A stretch of 64,000 bases of DNA from Burkholderiales bacterium (GCA_036522275.1 DATDGC010000073.1:1021-65020), one strand, 5' to 3'. Positions 33,163 to 57,635 are shown, numbered from the stretch's first letter. Made by a program: numbers and translations. Notes: generated by a model not told the origin, from the letters alone.

Positions 33163-33246
33163 GGAACCTCTGAATAAGTCCCCCGTGGAGCGCGTTTCTG
33201 GCGCAATGCGAGCGTCGCGCCCGCGTAGGACTTGTTCAGCGGTTCC
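33163..33246. repeat. 84-bp internally deleted derivative (copy D) of the TIR-bounded element family
   Basis: GGAACCTCTGAATAAGTCC ... GGACTTGTTCAGCGGTTCC are the same TIR type as copies B and C. It lies 17 nt upstream of the antiporter ATG. Confidence 0.6.
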
Positions 33247-38741: not shown

Positions 38742-38748
38742 TGCCACT

Positions 38749-39023
38749 GGAACCTCTGATTAAGCCCTGCGCAGTTGCGACGGTGGCTTTCAGGGGTGGG
38801 ATACGCGAAGCGAGGTGCAGCCAAGGGTTACTCCCCTTGGCAAGCCGAGCGACAAAGCAGACCGTCCGGACAAGCCCCGTCCCTCTGGGTTGCGGCAAAA
38901 TACGGCGTCTGCGTCGTTGCGATCCTCGGCTTCGTAGTTCAAGCTACGACCTTCGTCGCGCGCCTCGCATCCATCTGCATTTTGCCGACAACGCAATCCG
39001 TGGAGGACTTAATCAGAGGTTCC
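38749..39023. repeat. 275-bp TIR-bounded dispersed element, copy B
   Basis: Bounded by GGAACCTCTGATTAAGCC and GGACTTAATCAGAGGTTCC. The internal core CCCCGTCCCTCTGGGTTGCGGC is shared with copy C. It fills the pbpG-stop to egtD-like-start gap exactly. Confidence 0.75.
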
Positions 39024-40043
39024 CTAACTTGAGTGCGGTTTGTATGCAAAGCTGGTTTCAATCCATCTTTTAATGCGGTTGGCGTCGGCGATGCGGGTGT
39101 ATTTGCCCCATGAATCCAGCAATACGATGATCACCGCCTGCTGTGCGATTTTTGCCTGCATCACCAGACAGCGTCCGGAATCGTGGATATAGCCGGTCTT
39201 GGACAACCCGATATCCCAGCTCTTGCTCTTGACCAACAGATTGGAATTATGAAAAGGCAGGTTGCGCGACTTGCGTTGCGCCACCGCATGCGAGTGCGCA
39301 GTGGTGTATTCGCGTATCAGTTCGTAGCCGTAGCTCGCTTTCACCATCTTTACCAAATCCTGCGCCGTGGAAACATTGCCTCTGTTTAGGCCGGTAGGAT
39401 CCACGAACCGAGTATCCATCATGCCCAAAGCCTCCGCCTTGCGGTTCATCACCGCGACAAAAGCCGGCACACCACCGGGATATGCGCGCGCCAAAGCAGC
39501 AGCGGCGCGGTTTTCCGAAGCCATCAGCGCCAGCTGCAACAGTTCGTCGCGCGTGAGCGTCATCCCGACATTGAGCTTGGAACGGGTGCCGCGCAAAGTA
39601 TCCACGTCTTGCTTCTCGATGGTAATTTGCTCATCCAGCGGCAATTGCGCATCGAGTATTACCATAGCCGTCATCAGTTTAGTAATCGATGCGATCGGCA
39701 TGGGCACGTCGGTATTCTTGGAGTAGAGCGGCCGCTCCTGCTCCTGATTTACCACTATAGCAGAGGCGGAACGCATGCCGCGCAGCTTAGCCGGATCGGG
39801 CGGCGGCAAGTCGGGCTGCACTTCGGCAATGGGCTGCGAGGCGCGCTCGGATTGTACTGCTTCCTGCGCGACATCGAGCGGGAGTAATGCCGGCTGCGCC
39901 TCAACGGGCGCCTGAACCGCCGGTTGCTCGTCTTGCGGCACAACCTCCTCCTCGGCGGCAAACACTCCCGTCGTCAACAACAGCAAGCCGAGAATAAGAA
40001 ATTTTTTCTGCATTGTTTTGTATCTTAAGTTAATGAAACGCAA
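39024..40043 (-). CDS. pbpG: D-alanyl-D-alanine endopeptidase (PBP7-like, S11 family)
   Basis: 339 aa with a signal peptide and the SITK, SEN and KTG motifs in order. Confidence 0.85.
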   Translation of the reverse strand: MRFINLRYKTMQKKFLILGLLLLTTGVFAAEEEVVPQDEQPAVQAPVEAQPALLPLDVAQEAVQSERASQPIAEVQPDLPPPDPAKLRGMRSASAIVVNQEQERPLYSKNTDVPMPIASITKLMTAMVILDAQLPLDEQITIEKQDVDTLRGTRSKLNVGMTLTRDELLQLALMASENRAAAALARAYPGGVPAFVAVMNRKAEALGMMDTRFVDPTGLNRGNVSTAQDLVKMVKASYGYELIREYTTAHSHAVAQRKSRNLPFHNSNLLVKSKSWDIGLSKTGYIHDSGRCLVMQAKIAQQAVIIVLLDSWGKYTRIADANRIKRWIETSFAYKPHSS

Positions 40044-40161
40044 CGGCTTTCCCTGGTTCCCTTAAAGCCAGCGCCAATGATCGCAGCTAAAACAACAAAA
40101 ATCAAGGTCTAAGTTCACATTTGTGACCAAGATTTTAAGGGTGATACCGACCTCATTGATT

Positions 40162-40474
40162 TTACAGATAAGGTCCACACATAAGGCTTGGGTTGTGCCC
40201 TTGGAGGGAGGTTTCCTCTTCGAAAAAACCCGCAATCAGGCGCGCACCGCTTCCACCTGGTGTGAGCTGTTTCCTTCCTTGTTGCGCGGCTTCTTCCTGC
40301 TGCTGCAGCGCCCACATGTGCGCGTAGGCACCCTGATTTTCCAAAAGCTCGTGATGGGTGTCACTCTCGATGATGCGACCGTGGTCCATCACCAGAATCT
40401 GTTCGGCATCAACCATGGTGGACAGTCGGTGGGTGATGGTAAGCGTGGTTGCGCCTGAGTTCCATTTGAATTAA
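40162..40474 (-). pseudogene. displaced 3' fragment of an Atm1-like ABC transporter gene
   Basis: Encodes ...DAEQILVMDHGRIIESDTHHELLENQGAYAHMWALQQQEEA. About 40287-40474 aligns at roughly 90% identity (by eye, one 14-nt indel) with 50445-50646 of the intact gene. Walker motifs and the TMD are absent. Confidence 0.75.
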
Positions 40475-40483
40475 AGACTGAGA

Positions 40484-40497
40484 GGACAGACCACTAA
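40484..40497. repeat. left copy of a perfect 14-bp inverted repeat (GGACAGACCACTAA)
   Basis: Exact reverse complement of 49409-49422. It lies 9 nt from the end of the ABC-fragment homology and 34 nt downstream of the last phosphonate gene. Confidence 0.5.
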
Positions 40498-40530
40498 CCC
40501 GATTGCGAAGCGCGCGGGCGGTGGGGAACG

Positions 40531-41631
40531 CTACCGCGCCTGAGCACCGCTGTGTCGCGCCGGGCTGAGCAGCGCGGCCACCGCGTCCAGAAACCGCTGT
40601 ATGTCCGCGGCGTCGACGACGCCCATGGTCGAGACGCGGAAGATGGACGCCGCCAGCTTGCCCTGGCCGGCGTAGATGACGAAGCCCCGCAGTTTGAGGC
40701 CGTCGTGCAGCGCGGCGTAGTCCAGGCCGTCGGGCAGGTGATAGGCCCGCAGGACCACAGAGCGCTCGCCTTCCCGCAAGAGCGGCACCACACCGAGACG
40801 GACGAGGCCCTCTTCCACCGCCTCGGCAAGACGGCGGTAACATTCGTGGCGTATGCGCCATCCGCCCTGATCCTCGAACTCGCGCAGTGCTTCGCGCAGC
40901 GCGTAGAAGATGGGCACGGCGGGCGTGAAGGCGGTGTCGCGGGCGTCCTGGGCGCGGCAATGCCGTGCCAGATCCAGGTACACGCTGCGGCCGCCGTCCC
41001 CGTCGGGCAGCGCGTCCCGGCGCAAAATCACGAAGCTCACGCCCGGCGCGCCGTGCAGGCATTTGTTGGCGCTGGCGACGCAGGCCGTCACGCCCCAGGC
41101 GTCGAATTCCAGCGCTTCCGCACCGAAGCTGCTCACCGCATCCACCAGCAGCGCAATGTTACGCTCCCGGCACAGGCGGCCCACCGCTGCGACATCGTTC
41201 AGCCGCCCGGTGGTGGTTTCGTGCTGCACGACGGCCACGTGGGTAAAGCCCGGTTGCGCGTCCAGATGCCGGGCCAGCGCGTCCAGGTCCACTGGCGTGC
41301 CCCACGCCTGACGCGCTACCGCGTGGGCGATGCCGTGGCAGCCGGCGATATCCGCCAGACGCGCACCGTAGACGCCGTTCTCGATCACCAGCAGCCTTCC
41401 GTCCCGCGGCACCAGGCTCACGAGCATGGCTTCCACCGCCGCCGTGCCGGAACCGGACACCAGCACCGGCGCCCAGCTCTCCGGCGGCAGCGGATAGACT
41501 TCCAGCAGCCGGCGGCGAATCTCGTCCTGCAGCTCGCCGAATTCCCGCTCCCGGTGGCACAGGTCGGGCAGCGTCAGCGCCACGCGCACCCGTTCGGTCA
41601 GGTTCACGGGCCCGGGGTTGAGAAGAATCAT
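40531..41631 (-). CDS. phnW: 2-aminoethylphosphonate:pyruvate aminotransferase
   Basis: ORF-track 40531..41646 trimmed to MILLNPGPV, giving an ATGA overlap with ppd. Class-V aminotransferase with the PLP-lysine region ASANKCLHGAPGVSF, as in PhnW/AepZ. Confidence 0.85.
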   Translation of the reverse strand: MILLNPGPVNLTERVRVALTLPDLCHREREFGELQDEIRRRLLEVYPLPPESWAPVLVSGSGTAAVEAMLVSLVPRDGRLLVIENGVYGARLADIAGCHGIAHAVARQAWGTPVDLDALARHLDAQPGFTHVAVVQHETTTGRLNDVAAVGRLCRERNIALLVDAVSSFGAEALEFDAWGVTACVASANKCLHGAPGVSFVILRRDALPDGDGGRSVYLDLARHCRAQDARDTAFTPAVPIFYALREALREFEDQGGWRIRHECYRRLAEAVEEGLVRLGVVPLLREGERSVVLRAYHLPDGLDYAALHDGLKLRGFVIYAGQGKLAASIFRVSTMGVVDAADIQRFLDAVAALLSPARHSGAQAR

Positions 41632-42812
41632 GATGTCTTTGCGCATGGGTGGGCGGACAGCGACGGGCTGCCGATATGGTTCATGAGCCGGCGTAGCACG
41701 TCGGCGGGAGCCAGTCCCGGCCGGGGCGGTGTGGCCGCCACCCCCGGCGCGATCTTGAGGTGGACAAACACCGGTCCGATGCCGTTTCGCCCCTGTAGCG
41801 CCTCGTCGAGCAGCGACAGGTTGTCGCCCTCCGAAACTTCCGCGTAGCCGCAGGCGGCAGCAATGGCGGCAAACGAGATGTCCCGCGCCACGGTGGCTTG
41901 GCCGCCGGTGGAATCGTGCACCTCGTTGTCCAGCAGCACGTGCAGCAGGTTCCGCGGACGGTAAGCGCCGATGGTGGCCAGGTTGCCCATACGCATGAGC
42001 GCCGCGCCGTCGCCGTCCAGCACTACCACCCGCAGGTCCGGACGCGTGAGAGCCAGGCCCAGCCCGAACGAGGACGCGCAGCCCATGGAACCTACCATGT
42101 AGAGCTGATGAGCGTGGTCCCCCAGGGCGTACAGCTCGCGGCCGGTGTAGCCAGTGGTGGCGATCACCACGTTGTTGCGCTTCGGCACGAGCCGGGCGAC
42201 GCGCTCCAGCGCTTCGATGCGGCTCGGCCGCACCGCCGGTGGTGAGCGCCAGGCGCTACGCGGGGCCGCCCGCGGGGAGCGCGGCGGCGCTTCCACCGGC
42301 GCGGGCTTGCACGGCGCGAACCGGCCTTTGCGCACCAACAGAGCGTACGGGCGCTCGCGCTCGCCGATCGAGGCGTCCGCCTGCGCCAGCGCTTGGGCCA
42401 GCGCCTGGGGCGAGTCCGGCAGGTATGCCCAGGGGATCTCCATGATGTCCAGCAGCGCCGGGGTGATACGCCCCATCAGCGCGTGCTGCGGCTCATCGGC
42501 TACTCCCGGCTCGCCGCGCACGGTGACCAGCAGCAGCACCGGGATGCGAAACACATGGGTGAGCGAAGTCAGCGGGCTCACCGCGTTGCCGAGGCCCGAA
42601 TTCTGCATCAGCGCGATGCTGCGCCGGCCGCCCACCCAGGCACCGGCGGCGGCGGCCACCGCATCACCTTCGTTGGCCGAGGACACGTAGGTAAGCGCCG
42701 GGTCGGTGTTTACGTGGTTGATCAACCCAGTGAAAAACGAGCACGGCAACCCGGCGTACCAGCGATAACCCAGTGCCGCCGCCTGCAGCGCGAACTCGGC
42801 CGGCTCGATCAC
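41628..42812 (-). CDS. ppd: phosphonopyruvate decarboxylase (ThDP-dependent)
   Basis: ORF-track 41628..43163 trimmed to the Val118 codon (GTG), giving a GTGA overlap with the pepM stop. The N-terminus is [27 protein letters not shown], and [13 protein letters not shown]...LDN is the ThDP motif. Confidence 0.85.
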
Positions 42813-44470
42813 GAAAGCGGCCCTTCGCACTCGCCCGCGCTGCTTAGCCCGTGGGCGAAATCGACGGCGCGGCGCAGATCGTCCGGGTTGTTCACGTCCA
42901 GCCAGTGGCCGTTCACGTACAGCACCTGCACGGGGTGCCCACTGTCGATCAGATAATTGAGCAGGTCCGGCAACCCGAGCTGCGTGAAGTCGGGCCGCTT
43001 GCCCAGCGCGTCCAGCGCCTGCAGTAGCCACCGGCGGCCGGCGCCCTGTACCCGCAGCATGCCGATCCACTGCCCGCTCGCCACGCCGGGCCCGGGCCGG
43101 GCGTTCACCCGTAGCAGCCGCACCTCCTGGCGGAACAAGGAGCGGTCGTCGGGGACCGAGCAATAGGCCAGGTCGCGCTGGCGCTCCGCCGGCACCGGCG
43201 AGGAATCCACCACCACCGCCACCTCTGCCGGGGTTTCCAGCAAGTCGCGCAGTATGTAGCTGCGAAACAGCAGGTCACCGTAGCTCACCACCGTATCCTT
43301 GCCGATGGCATCGCGGGCGCAGGCGAGGGAGGCAAGTTCGCCGCTCTCGGCATGGCCGCGGTTGTGCACGATCTTGATCCCCACCATGTCGATGGCCTGC
43401 GCCTTGTAGCCGGCGACCACGGTGATGTTGTTGACGGACTGCCGCTTGAACTCGTCCACCAGTCTCCGCAACAGCGGCCGTCCCGCCACCGGCAGCATGG
43501 CCTTGGGACGGTCCTCGGTCAGCGTGTCCATACCCTCGCCGCGACTGGCAGCCAGCACCAGCGCCGACAGGTCACGACCGGCTGCGGCGTACTGGCGCTC
43601 CGCCGCCAGCAGTTCGTCCGCCGACTGCAGCCGGAAAATCTCGTTGACCGGCGCGATCCGGTCCTCCACGTTCACCAGCGTCTGGGTGGTGTGGATCTCG
43701 CGGGTGAGCTCCTGCATGGCTGACACAGCCGCGCGCAGCGTGTGGTTGGCCCAGATGACGAGGCGGATGCCTGCGGCGCGGAACACGTCGGTGGGGGTGC
43801 TGTAGTACTTGGTGGGAACGATGACCAGCGGCGAGCGCCCGGCCCACTCCCTGGAGAAGGCAAGAATTTCATCGGCACTGCTTTTCTTGCTGTGGATCAG
43901 AATAGCGTCGGCGCCGGCTTGGCGGTACGCCTCGGCGCGGCGCAGGGCCTCGTCCAGGCCCCAGCCCGCGATCAGCGCCTCCACCCGCGCGACGATGACG
44001 AAATCCGGATCCTTCTGGCTGTCCTTTCCGGCGCGGATCTTGCCCTGAAACTCGGCGACGTCGGCCAGCGGTTGGCGATGGCCGTTGATGAAGCTGTTGG
44101 TTTTGGGGAACAGCTTGTCCTCGATGCACACGCCGGCGATGCCCCGCTGCTCCAGCTTCTGCACCAGGCGGCGCATGTTGTTGAAGTCGCCGTAGCCAGT
44201 GTCGCCGTCGATGAGGATGGGAATGCGGCTGGCATCGGACATGAACTCCAGCATGTCCACCACCTGGGTCCAGCTCGCCTCGTTGTTGTCGCGCACCCCG
44301 AACTGGGCGGAGAGGGTGAGCCCGCTGGCCCAGATGCCCTTGAAGCCGGCCTCCTCGACGATGCGGGCGCTGATGCCGTTATGCGCCTCCATGAGGAACT
44401 CCAGCTCGGAAGAGTTGAGAAGCGCGCGCAGGGCAGCGGCTTTGGTGGGGTGGGGTGGGGGTCTGTCCAT
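42809..44470 (-). CDS. pepM: phosphoenolpyruvate mutase fused to a C-terminal nucleotidyltransferase (PntC/LicC-like)
   Basis: ORF-track 42809..44818 trimmed to Met117 ([18 protein letters not shown]). [10 protein letters not shown] matches the PepM-diagnostic EDKX5NS motif, and DGDTGYG is present. The C-terminal 250 aa or so has an NTP-transferase fold ([11 protein letters not shown]...[12 protein letters not shown]). Confidence 0.9.
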
Positions 44471-44499
44471 AAATGGTTCCTTGAAGAAGAGCGCGGTGT

Positions 44500-45252
44500 T
44501 TACCACTGCAATCGGGGGAGTATCTCCAGGCGGGCGCGCTCGACGTCGTCGGGAAAGTCGATCTCTATCCAGGGCAGGCCGGTGACATCTTCTACTCCGA
44601 ACTGGCGCGGCCCGGCCTCCAGCATCAGGTCCCGCAAGGCCTCTTCGTGGGGCTCCTGACCGCGGCCCGTTTCCAGGTAGACTGAGGCCCGCGCCACCAG
44701 CGCGCGGCAGGTTTGCCTGGACAGGCGAAAGAAGCCTACCGACTCGCCGCAGACATCGAATGCGAGATTCGGCGCGACCTGCTTCCTGAATTCGACGATG
44801 CGTCCGTCGCGAACGCACACCTTCACCGGCTCGTCGCCGGGCTCGAAGTTCCGGTCCAGCAGCAGGCAGTCGGGCTGCCGGGAGTCCACCAGCGCACGCA
44901 GTATACGCTCATCGTAAAGCAAGTCGGCGTCCATGAGCAGCGTGTCCCGTCCCGTCAGCAGCGGTGCGCGGGCGTGCCACACGGTGACGATGCTGCCGAG
45001 CTGATAATCCGGATTGAACACGGTATCAGCGGCCAGCGCCTCCGGCAGCCGCGCCAGCTCTGCACGCACCTGATCCGCCGCGTAGCCGACCGCCACCCAC
45101 ACGTCAGCCACGCCGCACTCGCGCAACAGGTGGAGATGGCGTTCCAGCAGGCTCCGCCCGCCGAAGCGCAGCAGGCATTTCGGAACGGCGCTGGACTGCG
45201 CATCCTGCGCCAGCCGCGTACCCCGGCCGGCTGCGAGTATCACCGCCTGCAT
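44500..45252 (-). CDS. stand-alone LicC/MobA-like nucleotidyltransferase
   Basis: ORF-track 44500..45285 trimmed to [14 protein letters not shown] (G-loop) followed by PKCLL. Confidence 0.75.
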
Positions 45253-45294
45253 GGCACTCACCGTCGGGCGCGCGCGCCCGGCCAACGTGCCCGC

Positions 45295-46062
45295 TCAGAC
45301 ACGGAACACGTACTGCTTGCCGGGGTCGCGTTCGCAGTCGGGCGGGTAGCTCGCGCGCTTGTCGGCGTAGTAGCGCGCGCGCTGATCCCCTTCCGACAGT
45401 CTGTTGTAGGTGACGTAGAGCACCCGTCGCGGCCGGTCGCTCAGGTTGGCGTCCGAGCGATGGGGCGTGAACGAATCGAAGAACGCCACGTCGCCGGGAG
45501 CGGTCTCGTAGGGCACAAAGTCCATGCTCGCGGTCACTTCGTCCGGCAGCGGCGCCCAGCTCGGGCCAAGCTGCCCCTCCCGGTGGCGCCCGGCCACCAG
45601 CTCCAGGCAGCCGTTGGCCCGGGTCGCGGCGTCGATGCTGATGAGCGCGGTAATGTACAGGCTGGCGTAACGGTCCCATCCGGCCTGGACATCCTGGTGG
45701 GGTGTGAAGCCACCGCCGCCCGGCAGCTTGAAGTTGATCTTGTCCTTAAATATGACCGCCGGCTCGCCGAATAACTGGGCCATCGCGTCCCTCAGTCCCG
45801 GGCCGGTGAGCAGACGGTCCAGGCCGGCGTGGTACGGGCAGTAGTTTTCGATCCGGTTAAGCAGCCGCCGCCCCGGCTCCACGCTGCTCTGCTCAAAATA
45901 CATCATGTACTTGCCCGGCACCTCGGGATAGGTCGCAACCTCGTCGACCCAGGCCTTAATGCGCGCCATAGCGTCGCCTGGGTACAGGCCGCGAACGATC
46001 ACGAAACCGTCGCGTTGAAACGATTTGATCTGGTCTTGGGACAAGGGCTGGTTCATGGTCAT
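45295..46062 (-). CDS. phytanoyl-CoA dioxygenase (PhyH)-family Fe(II)/2OG oxygenase
   Basis: ORF-track 45295..46845 trimmed to MTMNQPLSQDQIKSFQRDGFVIV (255 aa). HQD plus a distal TPHRS His form the facial-triad pattern. Confidence 0.8.
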   Translation of the reverse strand: MTMNQPLSQDQIKSFQRDGFVIVRGLYPGDAMARIKAWVDEVATYPEVPGKYMMYFEQSSVEPGRRLLNRIENYCPYHAGLDRLLTGPGLRDAMAQLFGEPAVIFKDKINFKLPGGGGFTPHQDVQAGWDRYASLYITALISIDAATRANGCLELVAGRHREGQLGPSWAPLPDEVTASMDFVPYETAPGDVAFFDSFTPHRSDANLSDRPRRVLYVTYNRLSEGDQRARYYADKRASYPPDCERDPGKQYVFRV

Positions 46063-46091
46063 CCGTCGGTTCAATGCATCCGCATCGCGCA

Positions 46092-46703
46092 TCAACTCGC
46101 CGCTCCGGTTCGGGCGCAATTGCGCAGCAGTTTCCAGTAGAAAAACACCGCAAACACCGGTGCGCCCACTGCCGCCACCGACAGGAGCTCCTCCGCCAGC
46201 CCGAACCAGATCAGGGTCGGCACGGCGAGTATTCCGTCGTCGGGATCGAAGCCAGCTGCTCCACCAAGCTCCGCCGCGCGTGCGCCCCGTAGCGCCTCCA
46301 GACGCAGCGTGAGAAAAAGAATCGCGGCAACGGCAAGGCCGGCCAGCACGCCCATCGGGATCGCCCGCCATTCCAGGGACCCGCCCGAGAGCCCGACGCC
46401 TAGCCCGATGAATACCAGCGTGTTGCACAGGCCGTCGGTCACCAGGTCGTACTTGTGGCCGAACACGCTCCTCTTTCCGGACTGGCGCGCCAGCTCGCCA
46501 TCGGCCCGATCGAGCAGCATGGACAGCACGAACACCCCTGCCCCCCAGGCCAGCGCTGCCGGGCTGCCGACGGCTAATATGGCGCTGGCTCCGAGACCGG
46601 TGAGCAGGCGCAGGGTGGTCAGGTGATTCGGCGCCACCGGAGTGTGGACCAGCGGCCGCACGCCGACCCGCACCAGGCGGTGGATCCAGGTGTTGTGACT
46701 CAC
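46092..46703 (-). CDS. CDP-alcohol phosphatidyltransferase-family membrane protein (copy 1)
   Basis: 203 aa. DRADGELARQSGKRSVFGHKYDLVTD fits D-x2-DG-x2-AR-x8-G-x3-D-x3-D. Multi-pass hydrophobic protein. Confidence 0.8.
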   Translation of the reverse strand: MSHNTWIHRLVRVGVRPLVHTPVAPNHLTTLRLLTGLGASAILAVGSPAALAWGAGVFVLSMLLDRADGELARQSGKRSVFGHKYDLVTDGLCNTLVFIGLGVGLSGGSLEWRAIPMGVLAGLAVAAILFLTLRLEALRGARAAELGGAAGFDPDDGILAVPTLIWFGLAEELLSVAAVGAPVFAVFFYWKLLRNCARTGAAS

Positions 46704-47086
46704 GACGCGGACTCGATGCGGGCTGTACCTGCCCGTCGCAAGGCCCTCGAGCGTGCCAGAGGATACCAGAAATCGGGGTGGGCGCCGGTCTTCTTGAGAT
46801 CAGGTCGGTTCTGTTTGTGCCGCGTCTCGAGCAGCGACGTGGCATTCGATGTGGATATGGCTCGTTCTACCTTCAACTGTGTGCGGCCACGCTGGCCCCG
46901 GTCCTGTATTAGGGTTTTCCCTTAGATTCTACCAGAAACTCGAAGTGCGGCACCGATCAGTGCTGGCCCGGCGTCGCGTGAGGTTACACTAAAGCACGAA
47001 TCGATCGTTCCAGGGGAGACTGCGGATGAGAAGCTTCACGCTGGCGCTGCTGGCGGGGGCCGACGATGCGCCCGTGGCCAAGGGGC

Positions 47087-47296
47087 TTACTTCGGGCGCA
47101 GGTCGGGAAAGAAGGCGACCAACTGCATCGCGAGTCCCATGTCCCCCGCGATCTTCAATCGCCCGCAGAGCAACGCCGACATGCCGCTCATCCCCTCTAG
47201 GATCGCGATGCAATCCTCCCCCGCCATCGACAGCGTGACGTTCGCCAGTGACACATGAGCGGGCAGATCATGTGCGGCTCCATTCAGCAAGAATGC
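47087..47296 (-). pseudogene. probable SCP2 (sterol-carrier/lipid-binding) domain remnant
   Basis: Only the C-terminal half of the domain is recognisable (ANVTLSMAGEDCIAILEGMSGMSALLCGRLKIAGDMGLAMQLVAFF). The upstream part of ORF 47087..47431 overlaps the GT9 3' end and does not look like SCP2. Confidence 0.35.
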
Positions 47297-48419
47297 GCTC
47301 CACGCGCTCGATGACCATCTGTGACGTGACGCCTTGCATGCAGGCATGATCGTGCGGACATTGGGACAACCGTCGGTAGTTGCATGGCGAACAGGGTAAC
47401 TCCAATCGCACAATCGAATCGGGACGGCCATACGGCCCGATGCAGACCGGGTCAGTCGGACCGAAGATGCTCACGACCGGTCTGTTCAACGCCGCGGCCA
47501 GATGCATAGGTCCGGAATCGTTGGTGACGCAGATTGCTGCGCGCTGAATAAGCGCCGCAAGATGGGCCGGTGTCGTTTGTCCGGCAAGGTCACGGGCTCC
47601 CGGACAGGTTGACGCAACTTTCTGACACAACTGCTGCTCGCGCGGCGATCCAGCCAGTGCAACGGCATAGCCTTGATTCAGAAAATACCGGGCGACGTCC
47701 TTATAGCCATCCAGTCGCCAGTGCTTGGTTTCCCAGACTGTGCCCGGCATCAGTAGCGCCAACGGTTTGCCGAGAAGATCGTGTTGACCGAGCAATTGTT
47801 CGACGTCCGGCAAAGCATCAGGCGGCAAATAGATGCGAAAGTCAGGCGGCGAATCATCGAGGCCAAGTATCGGTCCGATCCACAAGTAGCGATCGGCGGC
47901 ATGCACAGCCAGCGTCGGGATTGGAATGCGATGGGTGTAGGCAAGCCATGAGCCTTCACGCGAACCAGCCCAGCCTCGGTCCGGGACGTTTTTGTCACCG
48001 CCCCGCTCGTAACCGCTATCTTCGCGTCGCACAGGTCCACGAAAACCGATGCGTACAGACGCGCCGCTGGCCATGACGAACAGCGCCGAGCGAAGCTGGC
48101 CGTGCATATCAATCACGAGGTCATAATGCGCGCGACGGATTTGTCTCAGCAGGCGAAACAATCCGGTGGTGGCATCCCAACTGCGGCCAAAGTGCGCAAA
48201 TTCGTGCCGGTCGAACAAAATAATGTTGGTTAAGGCGGGATGGCAGCGTATCAGCTCGGCGTTTTGCGGCGTAAGAAACCAATCGATCTGCGCCCTTGGG
48301 TAACGCGCGCGTAATTTGACGAGCAACGGGATGGTGTGGATCACGTCCCCCAAGGCTGAAGGTTTGATCAACAGAATCCGTTCGAACTCTATTGTGCGAA
48401 GCGGTGACGCCAATTCCAA
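47268..48419 (-). CDS. glycosyltransferase family 9 (heptosyltransferase-like)
   Basis: 383 aa. ILLIKPSALGDVIHTIPLL N-terminus and NDSGPMHLAAAL C-terminal motif. Confidence 0.8.
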   Translation of the reverse strand: MELASPLRTIEFERILLIKPSALGDVIHTIPLLVKLRARYPRAQIDWFLTPQNAELIRCHPALTNIILFDRHEFAHFGRSWDATTGLFRLLRQIRRAHYDLVIDMHGQLRSALFVMASGASVRIGFRGPVRREDSGYERGGDKNVPDRGWAGSREGSWLAYTHRIPIPTLAVHAADRYLWIGPILGLDDSPPDFRIYLPPDALPDVEQLLGQHDLLGKPLALLMPGTVWETKHWRLDGYKDVARYFLNQGYAVALAGSPREQQLCQKVASTCPGARDLAGQTTPAHLAALIQRAAICVTNDSGPMHLAAALNRPVVSIFGPTDPVCIGPYGRPDSIVRLELPCSPCNYRRLSQCPHDHACMQGVTSQMVIERVERILAEWSRT

Positions 48420-49136
48420 TCAGCTCCGGAATGCACCGGTAAGTTTTTTCGTCCAAGCGGAAAACCGGTGTCGCCTGGTTTCACGGTCCACCACGCTCTG
48501 GGTGGTGACCCAATTGAATTGAATCACGCGTCGGTCGCCGACGAACGGTTTATGGCCGTGATACGAATTGTCGCTGCGCAGGAACGCCAGTAGCGTTCCT
48601 TCGACTGGCGGCACTTCAACGATGACATCATCAAGGTTGTCGGAACGCAGTAGCCGCAGCCGACCGCCGGATTCCTCCCAAGCCGGATTCATGTAGATAA
48701 GCACCGTGATGATCTTGGTCTCAGTATCCGTGTGGATGCGGCCGTCCTTCGGACCGCAGCGGCCGCGGACTGTGATCATGGTCGGTCGTCCCGACAGATC
48801 AATGCCAAGCTTTTCTTCAAAGGCCGCGCGCATTTCGGGGCCGCGAAGCTCATTCAGGAATTCACCGAAGGAGGGGCCGTACTGATGCTCTCCGACAGGG
48901 AAGCTTCCCGGCTGTGTGATTTTCGGGTAGTCCGCGTTGATCGCGGCGCAGGTGTCGGTATTCATAAAGCCCGGGACGATCAAGTAATGAAACGGCTCTT
49001 TGATGAGCGGCGTATTCCGAAAACGCTGCAAATTAATGCTCACGATGCGAGTCTTTCGCCGTACGGCCTGTGGTTGGTTCCCAAGGTGTCGATCATCACT
49101 TAATTTCAGTCTAAGGAGTTTTTTTACTGGACGCAA
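48420..49136 (-). CDS. 2OG-Fe(II) oxygenase-superfamily protein
   Basis: 238 aa. HTD ... YHGHKP His-x-Asp...His pattern. Its stop directly abuts the GT9 start. The true start is uncertain. Confidence 0.65.
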   Translation of the reverse strand: MRPVKKLLRLKLSDDRHLGNQPQAVRRKTRIVSINLQRFRNTPLIKEPFHYLIVPGFMNTDTCAAINADYPKITQPGSFPVGEHQYGPSFGEFLNELRGPEMRAAFEEKLGIDLSGRPTMITVRGRCGPKDGRIHTDTETKIITVLIYMNPAWEESGGRLRLLRSDNLDDVIVEVPPVEGTLLAFLRSDNSYHGHKPFVGDRRVIQFNWVTTQSVVDRETRRHRFSAWTKKLTGAFRS

Positions 49137-49217
49137 CGGCGATTTGTCTGGGAAACATACCGGCGCCGATGCGTGTATTTCTCAGCACCGTGGTACGCGG
49201 GGCGCGCTGCCCTGCGC

Positions 49218-49400
49218 TCAGGCGATGTCGGGAACCAGGTGGTAGGTGAGCGGCTGGCTGGCGTGCACCGGCCAAGCCTCGGGCCCCGTGGCGGACTTCG
49301 TTGCATCGCCCGCGGCGCCCATAGGCCCAGGTGCTCGAGGATGCGTCGGATGACTGCCGGATCCTCGATCAGCGCAATGACGCGCATCGGCTCCTTGCAC
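49218..49400 (-). mobile_element. IS91-family transposase C-terminal remnant (5'-truncated, frameshifted)
   Basis: KCKEPMRVIALIEDPAVIRRILEHLGLWAPRA in one frame and ...QPLTYHLVPDIA* in another resemble the conserved IS91/ISCR C-terminus (from my recollection of the family). The reading frame is cut by the TAA inside the 14-bp inverted repeat. Confidence 0.5.
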
Positions 49401-49408
49401 TTGGTTCC

Positions 49409-49422
49409 TTAGTGGTCTGTCC
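49409..49422. repeat. right copy of the perfect 14-bp inverted repeat (TTAGTGGTCTGTCC)
   Basis: Exact reverse complement of 40484-40497. It coincides with the truncation point of the transposase remnant. Confidence 0.5.
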
Positions 49423-49462
49423 CCATATATGCGATATATGCGATTAGGCCTCACTTCTCAGC

Positions 49463-50119
49463 CTATCTCGCGTCCCGATCGGAGGTTCCGATCTCCGCGG
49501 CGAGCGCCTTACGCTGGACGATGGCACTCAATCTTTGCCAGGTGATCACGGCGAACACCGGTCCACCAATCGATGCACCTATCAAGAGCGGCATGCTCAA
49601 GCCGATCCATACCGCCGGCGCAAATAGGTACAGCACGTCGTCGAAGTCGAAGCCAAGAACGCCGGCGTAGGCCTTGTCGCCAGTCGCCGCGATCTTCTCC
49701 AATCGCTCGGAAAGAACCGAAGCAATCGCGACCGTAGAACCCGCGATGACGCCGAGTGCGATCGAAGCATGCCCGAGAAAATTGTCGCGAAGGCCTATCC
49801 CTATCGCGACGAAGAATAGGGCGTTGATGGCGACGTCGCTGTAATAGTCGTAGAGATGCCCACCCGGGGAAGACATCCCACCGATGCGCGCGAGCTCGCC
49901 ATCGGCCCGGTCAAGAAAACACGACCCCAACCATAGGAGACCACCCCATAAATCCCAGGCCGGATCGCCGATCATGAACGCGGTGCAGGACGCAATGCCG
50001 GTGACGACGCGCGCGGTCGTCAGATCGTTGGGCGTGACGCCCGTACCGATCAGGGGGCGAACGGCGACGCGAGCAAGACGGTGGGTCCACGACGTGAACG
50101 GCTCCGTGATACGAAGCAT
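49463..50119 (-). CDS. CDP-alcohol phosphatidyltransferase-family membrane protein (copy 2)
   Basis: ORF-track 49463..50311 trimmed to Met65 (MLRITEPFTSWTHRLARVAVRPL, parallel to copy 1 MSHNTWIHRLVRVGVRPL). DRADGELARIGGMSSPGGHLYDYYSD is the family motif. Confidence 0.75.
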   Translation of the reverse strand: MLRITEPFTSWTHRLARVAVRPLIGTGVTPNDLTTARVVTGIASCTAFMIGDPAWDLWGGLLWLGSCFLDRADGELARIGGMSSPGGHLYDYYSDVAINALFFVAIGIGLRDNFLGHASIALGVIAGSTVAIASVLSERLEKIAATGDKAYAGVLGFDFDDVLYLFAPAVWIGLSMPLLIGASIGGPVFAVITWQRLSAIVQRKALAAEIGTSDRDAR

Positions 50120-50394
50120 CAGGCGGCGTCCTGCTTGACCGGAGCGACGGCACTCGCAAGCCGGCGACCCTCGATCGCTTGCCAGACTAGCATCACCGGC
50201 GGGGCGGGCTGCCCTCCCGCCTTCCACAACCCGCGGGAAGGGCCAGAGTCCCTCTTGCCCCAAGCCCCGCGCACGGGGGTGCACCAGGCGCACGAAGGCA
50301 ATGGGTCGCAACTAGCGTACATAGGGTCGGCTCTTTATTTTATATGTCGTAGTGAGAAACCCGGTTAGCTCAGATCACGATCTCGATAAAATGT

Positions 50395-52221
50395 TTATCT
50401 GACTGCCACCGCTAACTCGCGCTTGATCTCCGTTCCGACGCGCTCGGCTTCTTCCTGCTGCTGCAGCGCCCACATGTGCGCGTAGACGCCCTGATTTTCC
50501 AAAAGCTCGCGATGGGTGCCGCGCTCGATGATGCGACCGTGGTCCATCACCAGAATCTGGTCGGCATCGACGATGGTGGACAGCCGGTGGGCGATGGTAA
50601 GCGTGGTGCGGTTGGCGGCGATGCGCCTGAGTTCCGCCTGAATCGCTTTTTCCGATTTCGAATCGAGCGCTGAAGTCGCTTCATCAAAAATCAGTATTCG
50701 CGGATTTTTCAAGATCGCCCGGGCAATCGCCACACGCTGCTTCTCGCCGCCGGAAAGCTTCAAGCCACGCTCGCCCACCATGGAGTCGTAACCGTCCGGC
50801 AGCGTCACGATGAAGTCATGAATGTGCGCCGATTTCGCCGCCTCGATGACTTCTTCGCGGGAAGCAGTGGGGCAACCGTAATTGATGTTGTAAAAAATGG
50901 TGTCGTTGAACAGCACCGTGTCTTGCGGAACGATGCCAATCACCGCACGCAGGGATTTTTGCGTCACTTCGCGGATGTCCTGGCCGTTCACCGTGATGCG
51001 GCCTCGCCCGACATCGTAGAAGCGGAACAGCAGCCGCGCCAGAGTGGACTTGCCCGAGCCGCTGTGACCCACTACTGCAACCGTCTTCCCCGGCGCAATC
51101 TCGAAACTCACATCAAACAGGATCTGACGCTTCGGCTCATAATTGAAATTCACGCTGTCGAAACACACCGCCGCCTTCCCTGCCACAAGATCATGCGCGC
51201 CAGGCCGGTCCTGGATATCCAGGTTTTCTTCCAGCAGGTTGAACATTTTCTCCATATCGGCGAGCGAATGGCGGATCTCGCGGTACACAAAACCCAGGAA
51301 GTTGAGCGGCAGATACAGCTGCAGCATGAAGGCGTTCACCAGCACCAGGTCGCCCAATGTCATCGTGCCGCTGACCACGCCGTGCGCCGCCAGCACCATT
51401 AGGAGCGTCATGCCCACTGCGATGATGGCGGATTGCCCGGCGTTCAATCCTGCCAACGAAGTCTGGTTGAGCACCGCCGCTTTTTCCCACACCTGCAGGC
51501 CTTCGTCGTAGCGCCGTGCTTCCCATTCTTCGTTGCCGAAATATTTTACCGTCTCATAATTGAGCAGGCTGTCTATGGCGCGGGTGTTGGCCTTGGAGTC
51601 CGAGTCATTCATGGTGCGGCGGAACACCATGCGCCATTCCGTCACCATCAGGGTAAACACGATGTAAATGGCCAGCGTGACGAAAGTCACCACCGCAAAC
51701 CACACGTCGTAATTGATGAGCAGGATTGCCGCCACCAGCGCGATTTCCACAAAGGTGGGCAAAATGTTGAACAGCATGAACTGCAGCAGGAAGGAAATGC
51801 CGCGGCTGCCGCGCTCGATGTCGCGCGACACCCCGCCGGTCTGCCGGTCCAGATGGAAGCGCAGGGAAAGCAAATGCAAATGGCTGAAGACTTTGAGTGC
51901 CACGCGGCGGATCGCACGTTGTGTCACCTTGGCGAACACCGCGTCACGCAGCTCGCCAAACAGCGTGGCGGAAAAGCGCAGCAAGCCATAACCTGCGAGC
52001 AGCGCGATGGGCAATGCCAGCAGCGCGTCTTTCAAACTCAACGAATCAACGATGCCTTTAAGCACCAACGGCACCGCGACATTGGCGACTTTGGCAAAGA
52101 CCAGCAAGGTGAGGGCCAGCGCTACACGCCCCCTGAATTCCCATAGATAAGGGACCAGGGTCTTGATGGTATTCCAATCTTTGCGGTTCTTCGGCGGCTT
52201 GCCGAAATGGGTGATGCGCAT
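50395..52221 (-). CDS. Atm1/HMT1-type ABC exporter (fused TMD-NBD)
   Basis: 608 aa. Walker A GHSGSGKST, signature LSGGEKQR, Walker B ILIFDEATSALD. Confidence 0.9.
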   Translation of the reverse strand: MRITHFGKPPKNRKDWNTIKTLVPYLWEFRGRVALALTLLVFAKVANVAVPLVLKGIVDSLSLKDALLALPIALLAGYGLLRFSATLFGELRDAVFAKVTQRAIRRVALKVFSHLHLLSLRFHLDRQTGGVSRDIERGSRGISFLLQFMLFNILPTFVEIALVAAILLINYDVWFAVVTFVTLAIYIVFTLMVTEWRMVFRRTMNDSDSKANTRAIDSLLNYETVKYFGNEEWEARRYDEGLQVWEKAAVLNQTSLAGLNAGQSAIIAVGMTLLMVLAAHGVVSGTMTLGDLVLVNAFMLQLYLPLNFLGFVYREIRHSLADMEKMFNLLEENLDIQDRPGAHDLVAGKAAVCFDSVNFNYEPKRQILFDVSFEIAPGKTVAVVGHSGSGKSTLARLLFRFYDVGRGRITVNGQDIREVTQKSLRAVIGIVPQDTVLFNDTIFYNINYGCPTASREEVIEAAKSAHIHDFIVTLPDGYDSMVGERGLKLSGGEKQRVAIARAILKNPRILIFDEATSALDSKSEKAIQAELRRIAANRTTLTIAHRLSTIVDADQILVMDHGRIIERGTHRELLENQGVYAHMWALQQQEEAERVGTEIKRELAVAVR

Positions 52222-52348: not shown

Positions 52349-52626
52349 AAGGAACCTCTGATTGAGTCCATCGTGTGCGCGACGGTGTGCAATCCGGGCG
52401 CAGGGCGCGACGCGAGGAGTGTCGTTTGGTGGAGGCCAAACAAGCGACGAACAACAAAGCCATGTGCACGGATTGCCCCGTCCCTTTGGGTTGCGGCGAC
52501 TGGGCAGACATCTGCGGTGTTGCTCGGGCTTGCGTTATGGCTTGATAGCGCTGCGCCCTCGCGCCTAGCATCTGGCCGCCCATCGTCCACAACGCGTCAC
52601 GCGCGGGACTCAATCAGAGGTTCCTT
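52349..52626. repeat. 278-bp TIR-bounded dispersed element, copy C
   Basis: AAGGAACCTCTGATTGAGTCC ... GGACTCAATCAGAGGTTCCTT form a perfect stem of 19-21 bp. The right TIR contains the cls-like stop codon. Confidence 0.75.
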
Positions 52627-53786
52627 GGTTCCTGTTCCCGCCCGTAACCAAACACGCCGGTGATGAAGCGCGCCACGCCATAGCAGATCCAGATCAGGAT
52701 GCGCTGCGCGAGCGGCTGGTTTGTCCAGCGTTCGCGCACTACTTGGGCTGCGCCATGCGCGACCGCCTGCATCAGGCTTTGCCTGAGCTGCTGGGCAAAG
52801 CCGCGGTCTTCCACCATCACGTTCGCTTCCCGCCCCAGTAACATGCTGAAGGGATCGATGTTGGAGGAACCGACCGTTGCCCAATAGCCGTCCATCACCG
52901 CCACTTTGGCGTGCATGAAGCTCTTGTGGTACTCGTAAATCTCCACGCCGGCATCCAAAAAATAGCCATACAGCGCCCGCGAAGCGTAGTGCAGCAACAC
53001 ATATTCCACCCGCCCTTGCAGGAGCAGGATCACGCGCACACCACGCGCCGCAGCGTTCACCAGCGCGCGGCGGAAATTACGGCCGGGAAGAAAATAGGCG
53101 TTGGCGATGATGATTTCCTGTTTGGCGCCGGCAATCGCATTGAGATAGGCCTGTTCGATATCGCGGCGATGGCGCAAGTTGTCGCGGGTGACCAGCGCCG
53201 CGCGCTGTTCCCCGCAGGGCTGAACCGCCGCCGGCAGGCCCTTGGTGTGGCGCCATTCCCGTCGCAGATGCGTCCATGTGACTCGCGCCCACAGGTCTCT
53301 CGCCGCGGCATGAACCACCCGCAACAGTAGCCCCTCGATCTTTACCGCATAATCGAAGCGCGGCGGGACCTGCTTAGGCGTGTGCATGTCGTCAATGATG
53401 TTGATGCCGCCAACGAACGCAATCCTGTTGTCAATCATCACGAGTTTGCGGTGCATGCGCCGCAGCCGCTGGCGCCTGAATTGGAAGCTCAAGACCTCCG
53501 GCCGGAACAGCAGCACCTGAATATCCGCCCGGGTCATGTCGTCAATCATTTCCTGAGGCAGGGACTTTGAGCCGAAACCGTCCAGCAGCAGATGCACCGC
53601 GACTCCGCGCTGCGCCGCGCGCTTCAAAGCTTCGGCGATGCGCCTGCCGGTGTCATCGTTTTCAAAAATATACGCTTCGAGGAAAATCTCCGAAGCCGCA
53701 TTATCGATTGCCTTTCCCAGCTCGGGAAAATACTCGGCTCCGTTATGCAGCAGCGTGACCCTGTTGCCCGCAAAAAAACGCATCAT
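52614..53786 (-). CDS. clsB: phospholipase-D-family cardiolipin synthase (ClsB-like)
   Basis: 390 aa with two HKD motifs (HRKLVMIDNRIAFVGGINI; HAKVAVMDGYWATVGSSNID). It is followed by a ybhP-like gene, as in E. coli. Confidence 0.8.
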   Translation of the reverse strand: MMRFFAGNRVTLLHNGAEYFPELGKAIDNAASEIFLEAYIFENDDTGRRIAEALKRAAQRGVAVHLLLDGFGSKSLPQEMIDDMTRADIQVLLFRPEVLSFQFRRQRLRRMHRKLVMIDNRIAFVGGINIIDDMHTPKQVPPRFDYAVKIEGLLLRVVHAAARDLWARVTWTHLRREWRHTKGLPAAVQPCGEQRAALVTRDNLRHRRDIEQAYLNAIAGAKQEIIIANAYFLPGRNFRRALVNAAARGVRVILLLQGRVEYVLLHYASRALYGYFLDAGVEIYEYHKSFMHAKVAVMDGYWATVGSSNIDPFSMLLGREANVMVEDRGFAQQLRQSLMQAVAHGAAQVVRERWTNQPLAQRILIWICYGVARFITGVFGYGREQEPRNL

Positions 53787-55869: not shown

Positions 55870-56316
55870 TCAATGCAGGATAAATCTTGGCAGTGCCAAA
55901 ATCGCGTCGCGGTTGCTCCAGGAAAAGCATTTTTGCGCCGCTTCCTGATACGGCAACCAGGCAAAACCTAGATGCTCGCGCGGTGCAACCGCCACTGGAA
56001 GCGGCTTCGGTACCAGCAAACCAAAGACATGCTCGGTATTTTTCGTCACTCGCGGAGGATAGCGGTGCCGCCACTCAGGAAAAATTTTATATTGGTTCTC
56101 GACGTTCCAATCCGTCAGCGCATACTTCCGCGCATCCAGCCTGGTCTCTTCCAGTACTTCACGAATCGCGGTTTGCTCCAAAGTTTCACCCTCATTCAAA
56201 CTGCCGGTCACGGATTGCCAGTAGTCGGGATGGTCGGCGCGTTCAAGTAACAGCACCTGTAGATCGGGGGTATGAACTATTACCAGGACTGAAACAGGTA
56301 TCTTGTAAGTCTTCAC
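55870..56316 (-). CDS. nudB: NUDIX hydrolase, dihydroneopterin-triphosphate diphosphatase-like
   Basis: 148 aa. Nudix box GSLNEGETLEQTAIREVLEETRL. aspS-nudB neighbourhood as in enterobacteria. The GTG start overlaps the upstream ORF stop (GTGA). Confidence 0.75.
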   Translation of the reverse strand: MKTYKIPVSVLVIVHTPDLQVLLLERADHPDYWQSVTGSLNEGETLEQTAIREVLEETRLDARKYALTDWNVENQYKIFPEWRHRYPPRVTKNTEHVFGLLVPKPLPVAVAPREHLGFAWLPYQEAAQKCFSWSNRDAILALPRFILH

Positions 56317-56678
56317 GGAGTCCGCTTGTTGTCAATTAAGTCAATATACTCATCCGTATGGTACTCAATCGCTTCAGAAGCATAATTCAGATCCACATCA
56401 TAAGCGGCATTGAAGAGAATATTGAGCGCAGCGAACATGTTGAATTCCAACCCCGATTCCTTCATCTGTTGTTTCACTTCGTCGAGTCCTAACGCTGAAG
56501 GTACTATTGTGTTACGGAATGGCTCAAACGCATTTAGCACTTTCCGCTTTTGCTCAGAGTCAGGGGAAACCGCTAGGAGATCGACAATGCTATTTAAGAG
56601 CGTTTCGACAATCTCGGTTTGCGGGAGAAAATTGAACGTCCTTCCACTACTGAATCGGCTCAAAGTAATCTTCCTCAA
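56313..56678 (-). CDS. hypothetical protein (cassette ORF-121; possibly the 3' part of a frameshifted gene)
   Basis: Low-GC ORF with only a TTG start and no ATG in the first 70 codons or so. It overlaps ORF-70 by 32 nt in another frame. No family recognised. Confidence 0.35.
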   Translation of the reverse strand: MRKITLSRFSSGRTFNFLPQTEIVETLLNSIVDLLAVSPDSEQKRKVLNAFEPFRNTIVPSALGLDEVKQQMKESGLEFNMFAALNILFNAAYDVDLNYASEAIEYHTDEYIDLIDNKRTP

Positions 56679-56859
56679 TTATCCCCGTACCGATTAGACG
56701 TCTCATTTCACCTGGTGCTTTGACCAGGCATTTTTCGAGAACGTTACGCATTAAGTCCGCATCCTCAGGAAAATCTCCGCTGCCTGACCATTCATCGCTG
56801 ATGCGCTCGGCGATAGCCCTTGCCCACATACGACGGTTTTCAAGACGCTGGAGCTTCAT
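56647..56859 (-). CDS. hypothetical protein (cassette ORF-70)
   Basis: The ATG lies 5 nt after the DpnI-like stop. 70 aa, acidic. No family recognised. Confidence 0.35.
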   Translation of the reverse strand: MKLQRLENRRMWARAIAERISDEWSGSGDFPEDADLMRNVLEKCLVKAPGEMRRLIGTGIIEEDYFEPIQ

Positions 56860-56864
56860 AATTA

Positions 56865-57635
56865 TTAAATTACTCGATACTTTCCGCCACCTTTAAATTC
56901 AAGGTAATTCTGATCACGCAGCACTTGTAGCTGCTGGCGAATTTTGTCCTTAATAAAATTGTTTTTTGGATGCATTTTCTTTAGTCCCGCTTCGAATCGG
57001 TACATATCACTTAATGAAAACTCGGAGACCCCGATTTGCTCAATACAGCGCATCACGTCAAGGGCCCAGCCACGTGCTTCGATGTTTTTCGTTTTCTTGA
57101 GAAAAACGGTTTTTCCCCAGGTCTCTAGCACTTGCTTGTCCGGCACAAACTGTTTGTTCAGGACGTAATGGATCCTACCGATTTCTAGGATTTGATCAAG
57201 CAGTATGTTGCAACCTACCCAACCTGCTCGTCGAGCGGTGTCCTTAAGAGGTTTTCGCTTTTCAATAATTCTCGGCGCAAAGAAGTGACCCGGTACCACA
57301 AAAAAATTGAGGACCTCCAGGAGGCGTGGGTCGTAGGACAGAAAAAAGAAATTGGGATTGTTGCTCGATTGCAACCGGTCGAGCATCGTTGCGTACGCAC
57401 CGTCCGTCACCTTGCGCGCGAAATTATTCTGCTTGCTCTTGAGCTCATACTGCTCGGAACAAACAGAGCAATAAAAATCAAGAACGGGTCTGTTGTTGCG
57501 TTCGCGTTCGATAGGATTTCCACACGAGGCACAAATGATATTACGGCGCGCCCAATCTTCGCTCATCACGCGAATTTTCTGCGCAGCGCTTGAATAACCG
57601 ACCACCAGACTAGAGTCCAGCGATAAGGTCTTCAT
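56865..57635 (-). CDS. DpnI-family methyl-directed type IIM restriction endonuclease (Gm6ATC-specific family)
   Basis: 256 aa, collinear with my recollection of S. pneumoniae DpnI: NNRPVLDFYCSVCSEQYELKSK, DGAYATM, NNPNFFFL, ARRAGWVGCNI, DMYRFE, KIRQQLQVLRDQNYLEFKGGGKYR (PD-(D/E)XK N-domain plus winged-helix C-domain). Confidence 0.9.
   Translation of the reverse strand: MKTLSLDSSLVVGYSSAAQKIRVMSEDWARRNIICASCGNPIERERNNRPVLDFYCSVCSEQYELKSKQNNFARKVTDGAYATMLDRLQSSNNPNFFFLSYDPRLLEVLNFFVVPGHFFAPRIIEKRKPLKDTARRAGWVGCNILLDQILEIGRIHYVLNKQFVPDKQVLETWGKTVFLKKTKNIEARGWALDVMRCIEQIGVSEFSLSDMYRFEAGLKKMHPKNNFIKDKIRQQLQVLRDQNYLEFKGGGKYRVI

Follow-up and report, generated by a model that had tools for sequence, protein, structure and literature searches.

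Displacement of the C-terminal ends of genes is usually considered in the context of polymorphic toxins or attributed to integrases. In Escherichia coli, the element e14 supplies the end of icd and leaves a 3′ pseudogene, icdC, on its far side, and recombination restores a chimeric gene (PMC13626634). At type VI secretion system (T6SS) effector and rhs loci, displacement resembling homology-facilitated illegitimate recombination (HFIR) has been proposed to leave orphaned 3′ regions, and these orphans can recombine back (PMC5361080). Here we describe a locus that shares features with both. It lies in a 64,000-nt stretch of DNA from a Burkholderiales bacterium (GCA_036522275.1 DATDGC010000073.1:1021-65020), called the window below, in which an island of about 10 kb separates the intact gene for an Atm1/ABCB7-type ABC exporter from a decaying fragment of the native end of that gene.

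Like e14 and phage 21 in icd, this island adjoins an intact gene of essential type at its 3′ end, supplies the last part of that gene, and has a pseudogene at its far end. It differs in having biosynthetic cargo rather than integrase or prophage genes, and in having 204 nt of host-type sequence on both sides, such that only 14 codons and an untranslated region (UTR) are foreign. As in the C-terminal displacement of rhs, contact-dependent inhibition (CDI), and T6SS genes, a conserved stretch would have served as the anchor, a new 3′ end has been installed together with downstream genes, the old end has been moved downstream and survives as an orphan with a conserved piece, and no integrase is present. 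Here too, the repeats at the ends of the insert allow the orphan to recombine back. Unlike in those systems, the target is a housekeeping exporter and not a polymorphic toxin, its tail has no obvious new function, and the insert is a 10-kb metabolic island that represents a single event, in place of a toxin tip and immunity gene in an array. The locus is a natural case of 3′-end displacement by an acquired island without an integrase; both the kind of event and the cargo are known, and it does not constitute a new type of element.

An island at the end of an exporter gene

All genes of the region lie on the minus strand. A gene for a clsB-like cardiolipin synthase (52614-53786) comes first and the ABC exporter gene (50395-52221) second; some 10 kb of biosynthetic genes follow, then a piece of the exporter 3′ end, and last pbpG (39024-40043), which encodes a D-Ala-D-Ala carboxy/endopeptidase-like protein of Pfam family Peptidase_S11. 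The exporter is an intact but chimeric protein of 608 amino acids, host-type up to position 50440 and foreign thereafter, with the Pfam domains ABC_membrane and ABC_tran; its closest PDB relatives are ABCB25, ABCB7, and NaAtm1 (E ~1e-180). A scan with this protein, taking one genome per species, yielded 80 betaproteobacterial loci. In about 50 of the 80, pbpG begins 200-400 nt past the ABC gene, often with clsB upstream, and in none of these are island genes found between ABC and pbpG. Judged by this synteny, the ancestral order reads as clsB-ABC-pbpG, with pbpG as the original downstream neighbour of the exporter.

An earlier note on this DNA had proposed that the segment is an insertion bracketed by direct repeats of the exporter 3′ end that are about 90% identical and differ by one indel. 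The repeats exist, although their limits lie a few bases from those proposed, their identity is 92-93% depending on the alignment, and two indels separate them. Specifically, a direct-repeat search pairs 40284-40449 with 50442-50607 (166 nt, 93%) and, after a 14-nt register shift, 40438-40471 with 50610-50643; no second comparable direct repeat occurs in the 15-kb region, where nothing else exceeds 65 nt at 71%. The intact copy, X (50440-50643), spans 204 nt and comprises the last 68 conserved codons of the gene (IQAELRR...HMWALQQQEEAER), including the IAHRLST H-loop. The orphan copy, X′ (40284-40471, 188 nt), is a decaying pseudogene fragment. Compared with X, it has 15 substitutions and has lost 14 nt (TCGCCGCCAACCGC) as well as 2 nt at 40286/40287. 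The peptide encoded by X ends in ...QQQEEAER, and nucleotide similarity between the copies ends after ...GAGCGC. In local alignments the next 190 and 240 nt score below the shuffle mean, which led us to drop the idea that the tail of the intact gene and the sequence downstream of it are a diverged homologue of the tail and spacer beyond the orphan. The copies carry unrelated tails, just as the earlier note had said.

The closest relatives were retrieved by a metagenome scan with pbpG. In L083, L085/L090, and L087, the ABC gene has a single X, a tail of the type EEAERNKEGKSSHQAEAVRA followed by a stop codon, a spacer of about 200 nt, and then pbpG; the island is absent, and so is the orphan. 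An orphan in island-free relatives would have told against the reading of the earlier note, and none was seen. The ABC gene of L083 is 97.1% identical in nucleotides to that of the window over 51871-50440, and those of L085/L090 and L087 are 83-88% identical. The window and L083 cease to be homologous precisely at 50440, and homology picks up again at 40449. L084 is probably also island-free, its contig beginning inside X. L086, another contig that begins inside X, is not counted as island-free, and L082 was dropped from the island-free set on proving to be the decayed orphan of a further island-bearing lineage (L099, below). Exact look-ups returned no record of an identical ABC protein and, for pbpG, one 1.3-kb contig beginning inside X. 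By these comparisons the ~10-kb segment between the repeats is an insertion, as had been proposed.

The sequence that follows the orphan is recognisable as the native end of the exporter gene. It consists of the native tail, tailH (40236-40283), which ends in ...NKEGNSSHQVEAVRA and has its own stop codon, TGA, at 40236-40238, and of the native ABC-pbpG spacer (40044-40235). A hairpin at 40228-40241 is a weak match in a terminator scan whose overall result was not above chance. In the window, the 2 nt missing from X′ throw tailH out of frame. Island-bearing relatives from four sediment metagenomes have the dinucleotide AG between 40287 and 40286, which restores both the frame of the orphan and the TGA; thus, the orphan is a complete native 3′ end that has been displaced. 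The orphan tail and spacer of the window (40044-40283) differ from L083 at 7 of 240 nt (97% identity), and by this measure the native ABC end lies beside pbpG and the intact gene ends in island-borne sequence.

Two further statements of the earlier note need to be divided. It had asked whether the 3′ end of relatives matches the orphan better than the intact copy. Within the 204-nt repeat the opposite holds, because the orphan has decayed, whereas beyond the repeat the relatives are indeed closer to the orphan side. It had also viewed the insert as bringing a replacement 3′ end. The intact gene is completed by foreign sequence, but the 204-nt repeat is host-type in both copies, and the foreign part is far smaller than had been supposed.

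Junctions, decay, and age

The foreign part begins immediately after X. TailI (50395-50439) comprises 14 codons and a stop (VGTEIKRELAVAVR), and it is accompanied by 47 nt of foreign 3′ UTR (50348-50394). A search with the C-terminal peptide recovered the ABC C-termini of a distinct lineage, here termed lineage G, with tails EEAVRGGTEIKRELAVAVR or EEAERGATEIKRELALAGG, and tailI is homologous to these tails (P0181-P0188, L101-L103); the tail of L103 matches it at 43 of 48 nt. In L101, a member of lineage G, the upstream core genes are syntenic with those of the window and the ABC gene is only 74% identical. BLAST homology with L101 nonetheless continues past the stop codon to 50348, and tailI and UTR together are ~85% identical, as against 74% gene-wide. 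The tail and UTR are also present in L060, a contig from a Burkholderiales metagenome-assembled genome (MAG), which carries tailI and the first 63 nt past its stop.

In contrast to the tail, X and X′ are both host-type, each with 44-49 differences from lineage G in ~200 nt. Between X and L083 there are 5 differences in 204 nt, equal to the 2.9% seen across the gene, and no jump in identity between L060 and the window, which would mark the intact X as element-borne, was seen at the start of X. Because both copies are host-type, only the tail has been replaced, and on these alignments a distant orthologue contributed no more than the final 14 codons and 47 nt of UTR. An alignment of the window with L083, L101, L102, and L103 places the left junction, J1, within 36 nt (50440-50475; ATGTGGGCGCTGCAGCAGCAGGAAGAAGCCGAGCGC), since the last host-diagnostic base lies just before ATGTGG and the first G-diagnostic base just after GAGCGC. 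This stretch is identical, or nearly so, between host-type and G-type ABC genes.

The right junction, J2, falls between 40472 and 40471, where X′ meets a 40-nt filler (40472-40511) that is unique in the window. Homology of the cargo cassette to its counterparts in L098 and L100 (below) ends at 40512-40520. Compared on the host side, the filler-X′ junction shows nothing homologous to the sequence that precedes X. Because recipient state and donor signature can both be read at this locus, one junction could be placed within 36 nt and the other to the base.

Both junctions recur in Logan contigs of four sediment metagenomes and in the Burkholderiales MAG, and an assembly artefact is excluded because these assemblies are independent. 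In L099, a contig of the same MAG as L060, the last three genes of the cargo are followed by the filler, X′, a native-type tail, and pbpG, with the same J2 as in the window; this junction also appears as a loose end in run X9. The Logan contigs of island-bearing samples break at both ends of X, and several contigs of this locus end inside it.

The L060/L099 lineage is ~10-12% diverged from the window, and its orphan has followed a course of its own. In the window, 14 of the 15 substitutions in X′ are orphan-specific, 12 of them GC to AT, and most are non-synonymous at conserved residues, including IAH to ITH and ERG to ESD. The L099-lineage orphan has kept the 14 nt and, over 205 positions, has 46 differences from the intact X of its own lineage. 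These two orphans have essentially no derived change in common, whereas the window orphan and the X9-type orphan have three. Across lineages the orphans are 8-22% decayed and, from this pattern of substitutions, are neutral relics that decay independently. Because the junctions are common to lineages ~10-12% apart and the orphans decay independently, the insertion is old, in agreement with the earlier note.

One relative complicates the picture of simple descent. L083 is island-free, yet it is closer to the window (97% in ABC and in the tail and spacer) than the island-bearing L060/L099. Taken from a single metagenome contig, this suggests that the state of L083 arose by secondary loss through recombination of X with X′. 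The exchange would have taken place in the last third of X, transferring no shared orphan mutation. The earlier note had held that recombination between the repeats could still delete the island, which is plausible given a relative 97% identical and island-free, the loss itself being something we infer. In pbpG the distances approach a trichotomy (window-L083 8.4%, window-L099 9.7%, L083-L099 12.3%). L083 differs from the window by 2.9% in ABC and 8.4% in pbpG, and L084 by 14% in the ABC 3′ end and 10% in pbpG. These discordant divergences of neighbouring genes point to frequent homologous recombination around the locus, which blurs the local phylogeny to the point that gain and loss cannot be read from the pbpG tree.

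Cargo and neighbouring sequences

Phosphonyl tailoring of cell surfaces involves activation as CMP-2-aminoethylphosphonate (CMP-AEP) and transfer to lipid or glycan (PMC6697681). The core cargo of the island is a cassette of six genes (40512-46994) on the minus strand that covers ~6.5 kb at 67% GC, compared with 57.6% in the rest of the window. In reading order, these genes encode a CDP-alcohol phosphatidyltransferase (46092-46769; 225 amino acids, 84% identical to that of L100), a PhyH/PhnY-like dioxygenase (45295-46092; 265 amino acids), an NTP_transf_3 protein (44500-45285), a phosphoenolpyruvate (PEP) mutase fused to NTP_transf_3 (Ppm; 42809-about 44470) with the EDKxxxxxNS motif, a phosphonopyruvate decarboxylase (Ppd; 41628-about 42812), and an AEP aminotransferase of the PhnW/AepZ type (40531-41646). 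The last three are the genes seen beside the orphan in L099. They pass the curated NCBIfam cut-offs, given here in brackets after the score, of the models for Ppm (TIGR02320, 397 bits (320)), Ppd (TIGR03297, 429 (313)), and PhnW-AepZ (TIGR03301, 389 (361)). Some longer open reading frames (ORFs) were set aside. A 516-aa PhyH ORF (45295-46845) is a high-GC artefact that spans two genes, the dioxygenase and, in another frame, the CDP-alcohol transferase, and the ORFs of 669 aa for Ppm and 511 aa for Ppd likewise reach too far at the 5′ end.

The same six-gene cassette occurs in two unrelated settings, at L098 (4566-11101) and L100 (2149-8651), with 88.7% nucleotide identity. L098 is a lipopolysaccharide-type glycosyltransferase locus, and in L100 the cassette lies beside a Rieske oxygenase and a UvrD helicase; in each it is richer in GC than its flanks, and no mobility genes are found near it in either. 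By domain content the cargo is an AEP biosynthesis and tailoring cluster with a predicted role in decorating the cell surface. As in known pnt/AEP clusters, it includes a Ppm with the EDKxxxxxNS motif fused to a LicC/PntC-like NTP_transf_3 domain, Ppd, an AEP transaminase, an extra nucleotidyltransferase, two CDP-alcohol phosphotransferases, and a GT9 glycosyltransferase, the activities here being predicted from sequence. The PhnY-like dioxygenase is an addition to this set and suggests a hydroxylated AEP product.

Between the cassette and the foreign UTR lies a left module (46995-50347) with a GC content of 59.7%, whose genes also lie on the minus strand. It encodes the second CDP-alcohol phosphatidyltransferase (49463-50311; PF01066), a 56-aa ORF (MRVIALIEDPAVIRRILEHLGLW...; 49218-49387), a 2-oxoglutarate-Fe(II) oxygenase (48420-49136; PF13640), a GT9 glycosyltransferase of the heptosyltransferase family (47268-48419; PF01075, 1e-48) that passes the NCBIfam cut-off for heptosyltransferase II, and a small SCP2-domain ORF (47087-47431; PF02036, 3.7e-8). 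Compared with all fetched loci, the module matches only distant CDP-alcohol transferase and GT9 paralogues. Part of it is variable. Island-bearing relatives in runs X2 and X9 skip 49344-50375, with 50376 joined to 49343 via the 5 nt TCAGA, a join that removes the second CDP-alcohol transferase gene together with 15 codons at the start of the 56-aa ORF; read depth over the same interval is ~0 in four runs.

The 56-aa ORF has 59 homologues, most of them 54-57 aa long, which occur in unrelated contexts; one Trichlorobacter plasmid has 14 matching places, and neither Pfam nor NCBIfam has a family that covers it. The possibility that it is a C-terminal relic of an IS91/ISCR rolling-circle transposase, which would have accounted for a circular intermediate, was set aside as support for a transposase: neither Pfam nor NCBIfam returned a match, a tblastn search of 72,556 plasmids matched only a 67-aa hypothetical ORF, and a protein search returned small hypothetical ORFs. 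The family may represent a small mobile or selfish ORF, or else such a relic.

No integrase, transposase, or recombinase domain was detected by Pfam and NCBIfam in any ORF of the island or of its gaps, as the earlier note had observed for integrases. There is likewise no excisionase, phage, integrative and conjugative element (ICE), or plasmid gene in the window, and no tRNA, Rfam hit, or att-like feature at the island. The collinear metagenome versions leave no room for a recombinase gene. A second X copy or other cargo at the ABC 3′ end was found in none of 87 related loci, and L067 and L070, which have larger ABC-pbpG gaps, have no duplication of X.

Other features of the window were noted in passing. 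An element of ~275 nt that resembles a miniature inverted-repeat transposable element (MITE) is present in two copies (38749-39023 and 52351-52624), with terminal inverted repeats of 24-29 nt (GGAACCTCTGATTRAG...). The copies occupy the intergenic regions downstream of pbpG and upstream of ABC, and a half-site-like match lies at 33163-33175. In sediment metagenomes the element has a depth of hundreds to thousands, compared with ~10-50 for its flanks. Empty sites exist in relatives, where contig joints skip 38744-39024 and 52349-52628, and L083, L099, and L060 are without the element. Further upstream, GC content dips to 45-48% over 56000-57500 within a stretch of 55-62% GC; L101, L087, and L060 match both sides of this dip and are weaker or interrupted inside it.

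Routes of entry and their implications

We judge it modestly probable that the island arrived by an insertion independent of any integrase, anchored by homology in the conserved 36 nt of the ABC gene and closed by an illegitimate far junction. Homology-anchored acquisition is favoured because one junction lies in conserved homology, the other shows none on the host side, and the new tail comes from a foreign orthologue. The incoming DNA would derive from another lineage, its left end being the 3′ end of that lineage's own ABC orthologue (tail and UTR) followed by the AEP cluster. At J1, recombination inside the last conserved 36 nt would have kept the resident gene up to ...QQQEEAER while adding 14 codons, a stop, and a UTR. 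J2 would have been formed illegitimately 204 nt upstream of J1 in target coordinates, such that 204 nt of host sequence were duplicated as X, and the native X, tail, terminator-like hairpin, and spacer would have been pushed to the far end of the insert as the orphan. These steps would need no site-specific recombinase, and could proceed by HFIR, by a template switch that recopied X, or by a single crossover with a circularised fragment; we infer both the enzymology and the order of events from the structure of the locus. Vertical inheritance and neutral decay of the orphan would have followed, with the 204-bp repeats permitting a RecA-type deletion that restores the original gene.

Several points weigh against this account. 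In its textbook form, HFIR mostly ends in a loss of recipient DNA or in plain insertion, and a 204-bp target duplication is atypical; a circular substrate, a template switch, or sister-copy resolution has to be assumed in addition. In a very thin sampling of lineage G, no genome was found in which the cluster follows ABC directly, and on L101, L102, and the contig of P0188 other genes lie there, so the donor arrangement is hypothetical. Moreover, the left 3.3 kb, with its host-like GC and its presence/absence polymorphism, may be the remnant of a deleted element backbone, and since the left module is unassembled in the L060 MAG, an integrase is possible there.

These last points bear on the origin put forward in the earlier note, an integrative element in the style of e14 or phage 21. 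A recombinase would have integrated such an element through an attP containing X and tailI, and the integrase and backbone would later have been deleted. The architecture is that of icd-e14-icdC, in which the intact gene runs into the element and a homologous 3′ pseudogene stands at its far end (PMC13626634). An element-side tail from the orthologue of another host is what would be expected of an attP captured by imprecise excision, the expected site of an integrase, beside the intact gene, lies in a variable, mosaic region, and the junctions are identical in lineages whose orphans have almost no common decay. We nevertheless consider an integrative origin unlikely. It finds no integrase, excisionase, transposase, phage, ICE, or plasmid gene, no tRNA, no room for a recombinase in the metagenome versions, and no other use of the site in the 87 related loci, and the cassette moves between other contexts without an integrase. 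In addition, both repeats are host-type, whereas capture of an arm from lineage G would be expected to leave one of them G-type, barring later conversion. Two extra assumptions are needed as a consequence, namely that the integrase was lost everywhere sampled and that the G-type arm was converted to host type. Homology-anchored displacement would fit the locus at least as well.

A Campbell-type single crossover, which is an integrase-free sub-variant of the explanation we favour, seems distinctly improbable as a separate route. Here the substrate would be a circle, either a plasmid with a chromosomal fragment or one derived from a conspecific, that bore host-type X, tailI, and the cargo. Direct repeats of exactly the shared segment around an insert are the hallmark of a single crossover, and both copies are host-type as it would require; moreover, a circle of this sort would re-form on deletion between X and X′, and the island-free L083 is consistent with deletions of this kind. 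However, the problem is shifted back in time, since the joints of host X to G tail and of filler to X must pre-exist on the circle. Nor was any remnant of a plasmid backbone identified, and the window orphan is without the L060/L099 lineage variants that would mark a donor. There is next to no probability that the orphan has nothing to do with the island, as the remnant of an old paralogue or tandem duplication, or that the repeat is an artefact of assembly. Only the bare existence of the repeat speaks for such a reading, which is refuted by island-free relatives with a single X and no orphan, by the contiguity of the orphan with the native tail and spacer, by the occurrence of a second X at no other locus, and by the recurrence of the junctions in independent assemblies.

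Beyond the original acquisition, the 204-bp repeats might act as a mobility module that requires no dedicated recombinase, although we regard this as a long shot. RecA would excise a circle of X, tailI, and cargo, which could return by a single crossover to the ABC gene of any close relative and would always repair it in doing so. If true, the island would cycle through the population on a homology arm from a housekeeping gene instead of an integrase, and both L083 and the identical junctions with almost unshared orphan decay would be traces of such cycles.

For genome annotation, the locus carries a warning: an orphaned piece of a gene next to an island does not in itself point to a lost integrase. 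Repeats of this kind also create deletion potential and break assemblies. As read from its genes, the displacement seen here has installed a large metabolic island at a housekeeping gene while apparently keeping the target functional, which suggests how a phosphonate cell-surface cassette may spread between genomes without mobility genes.

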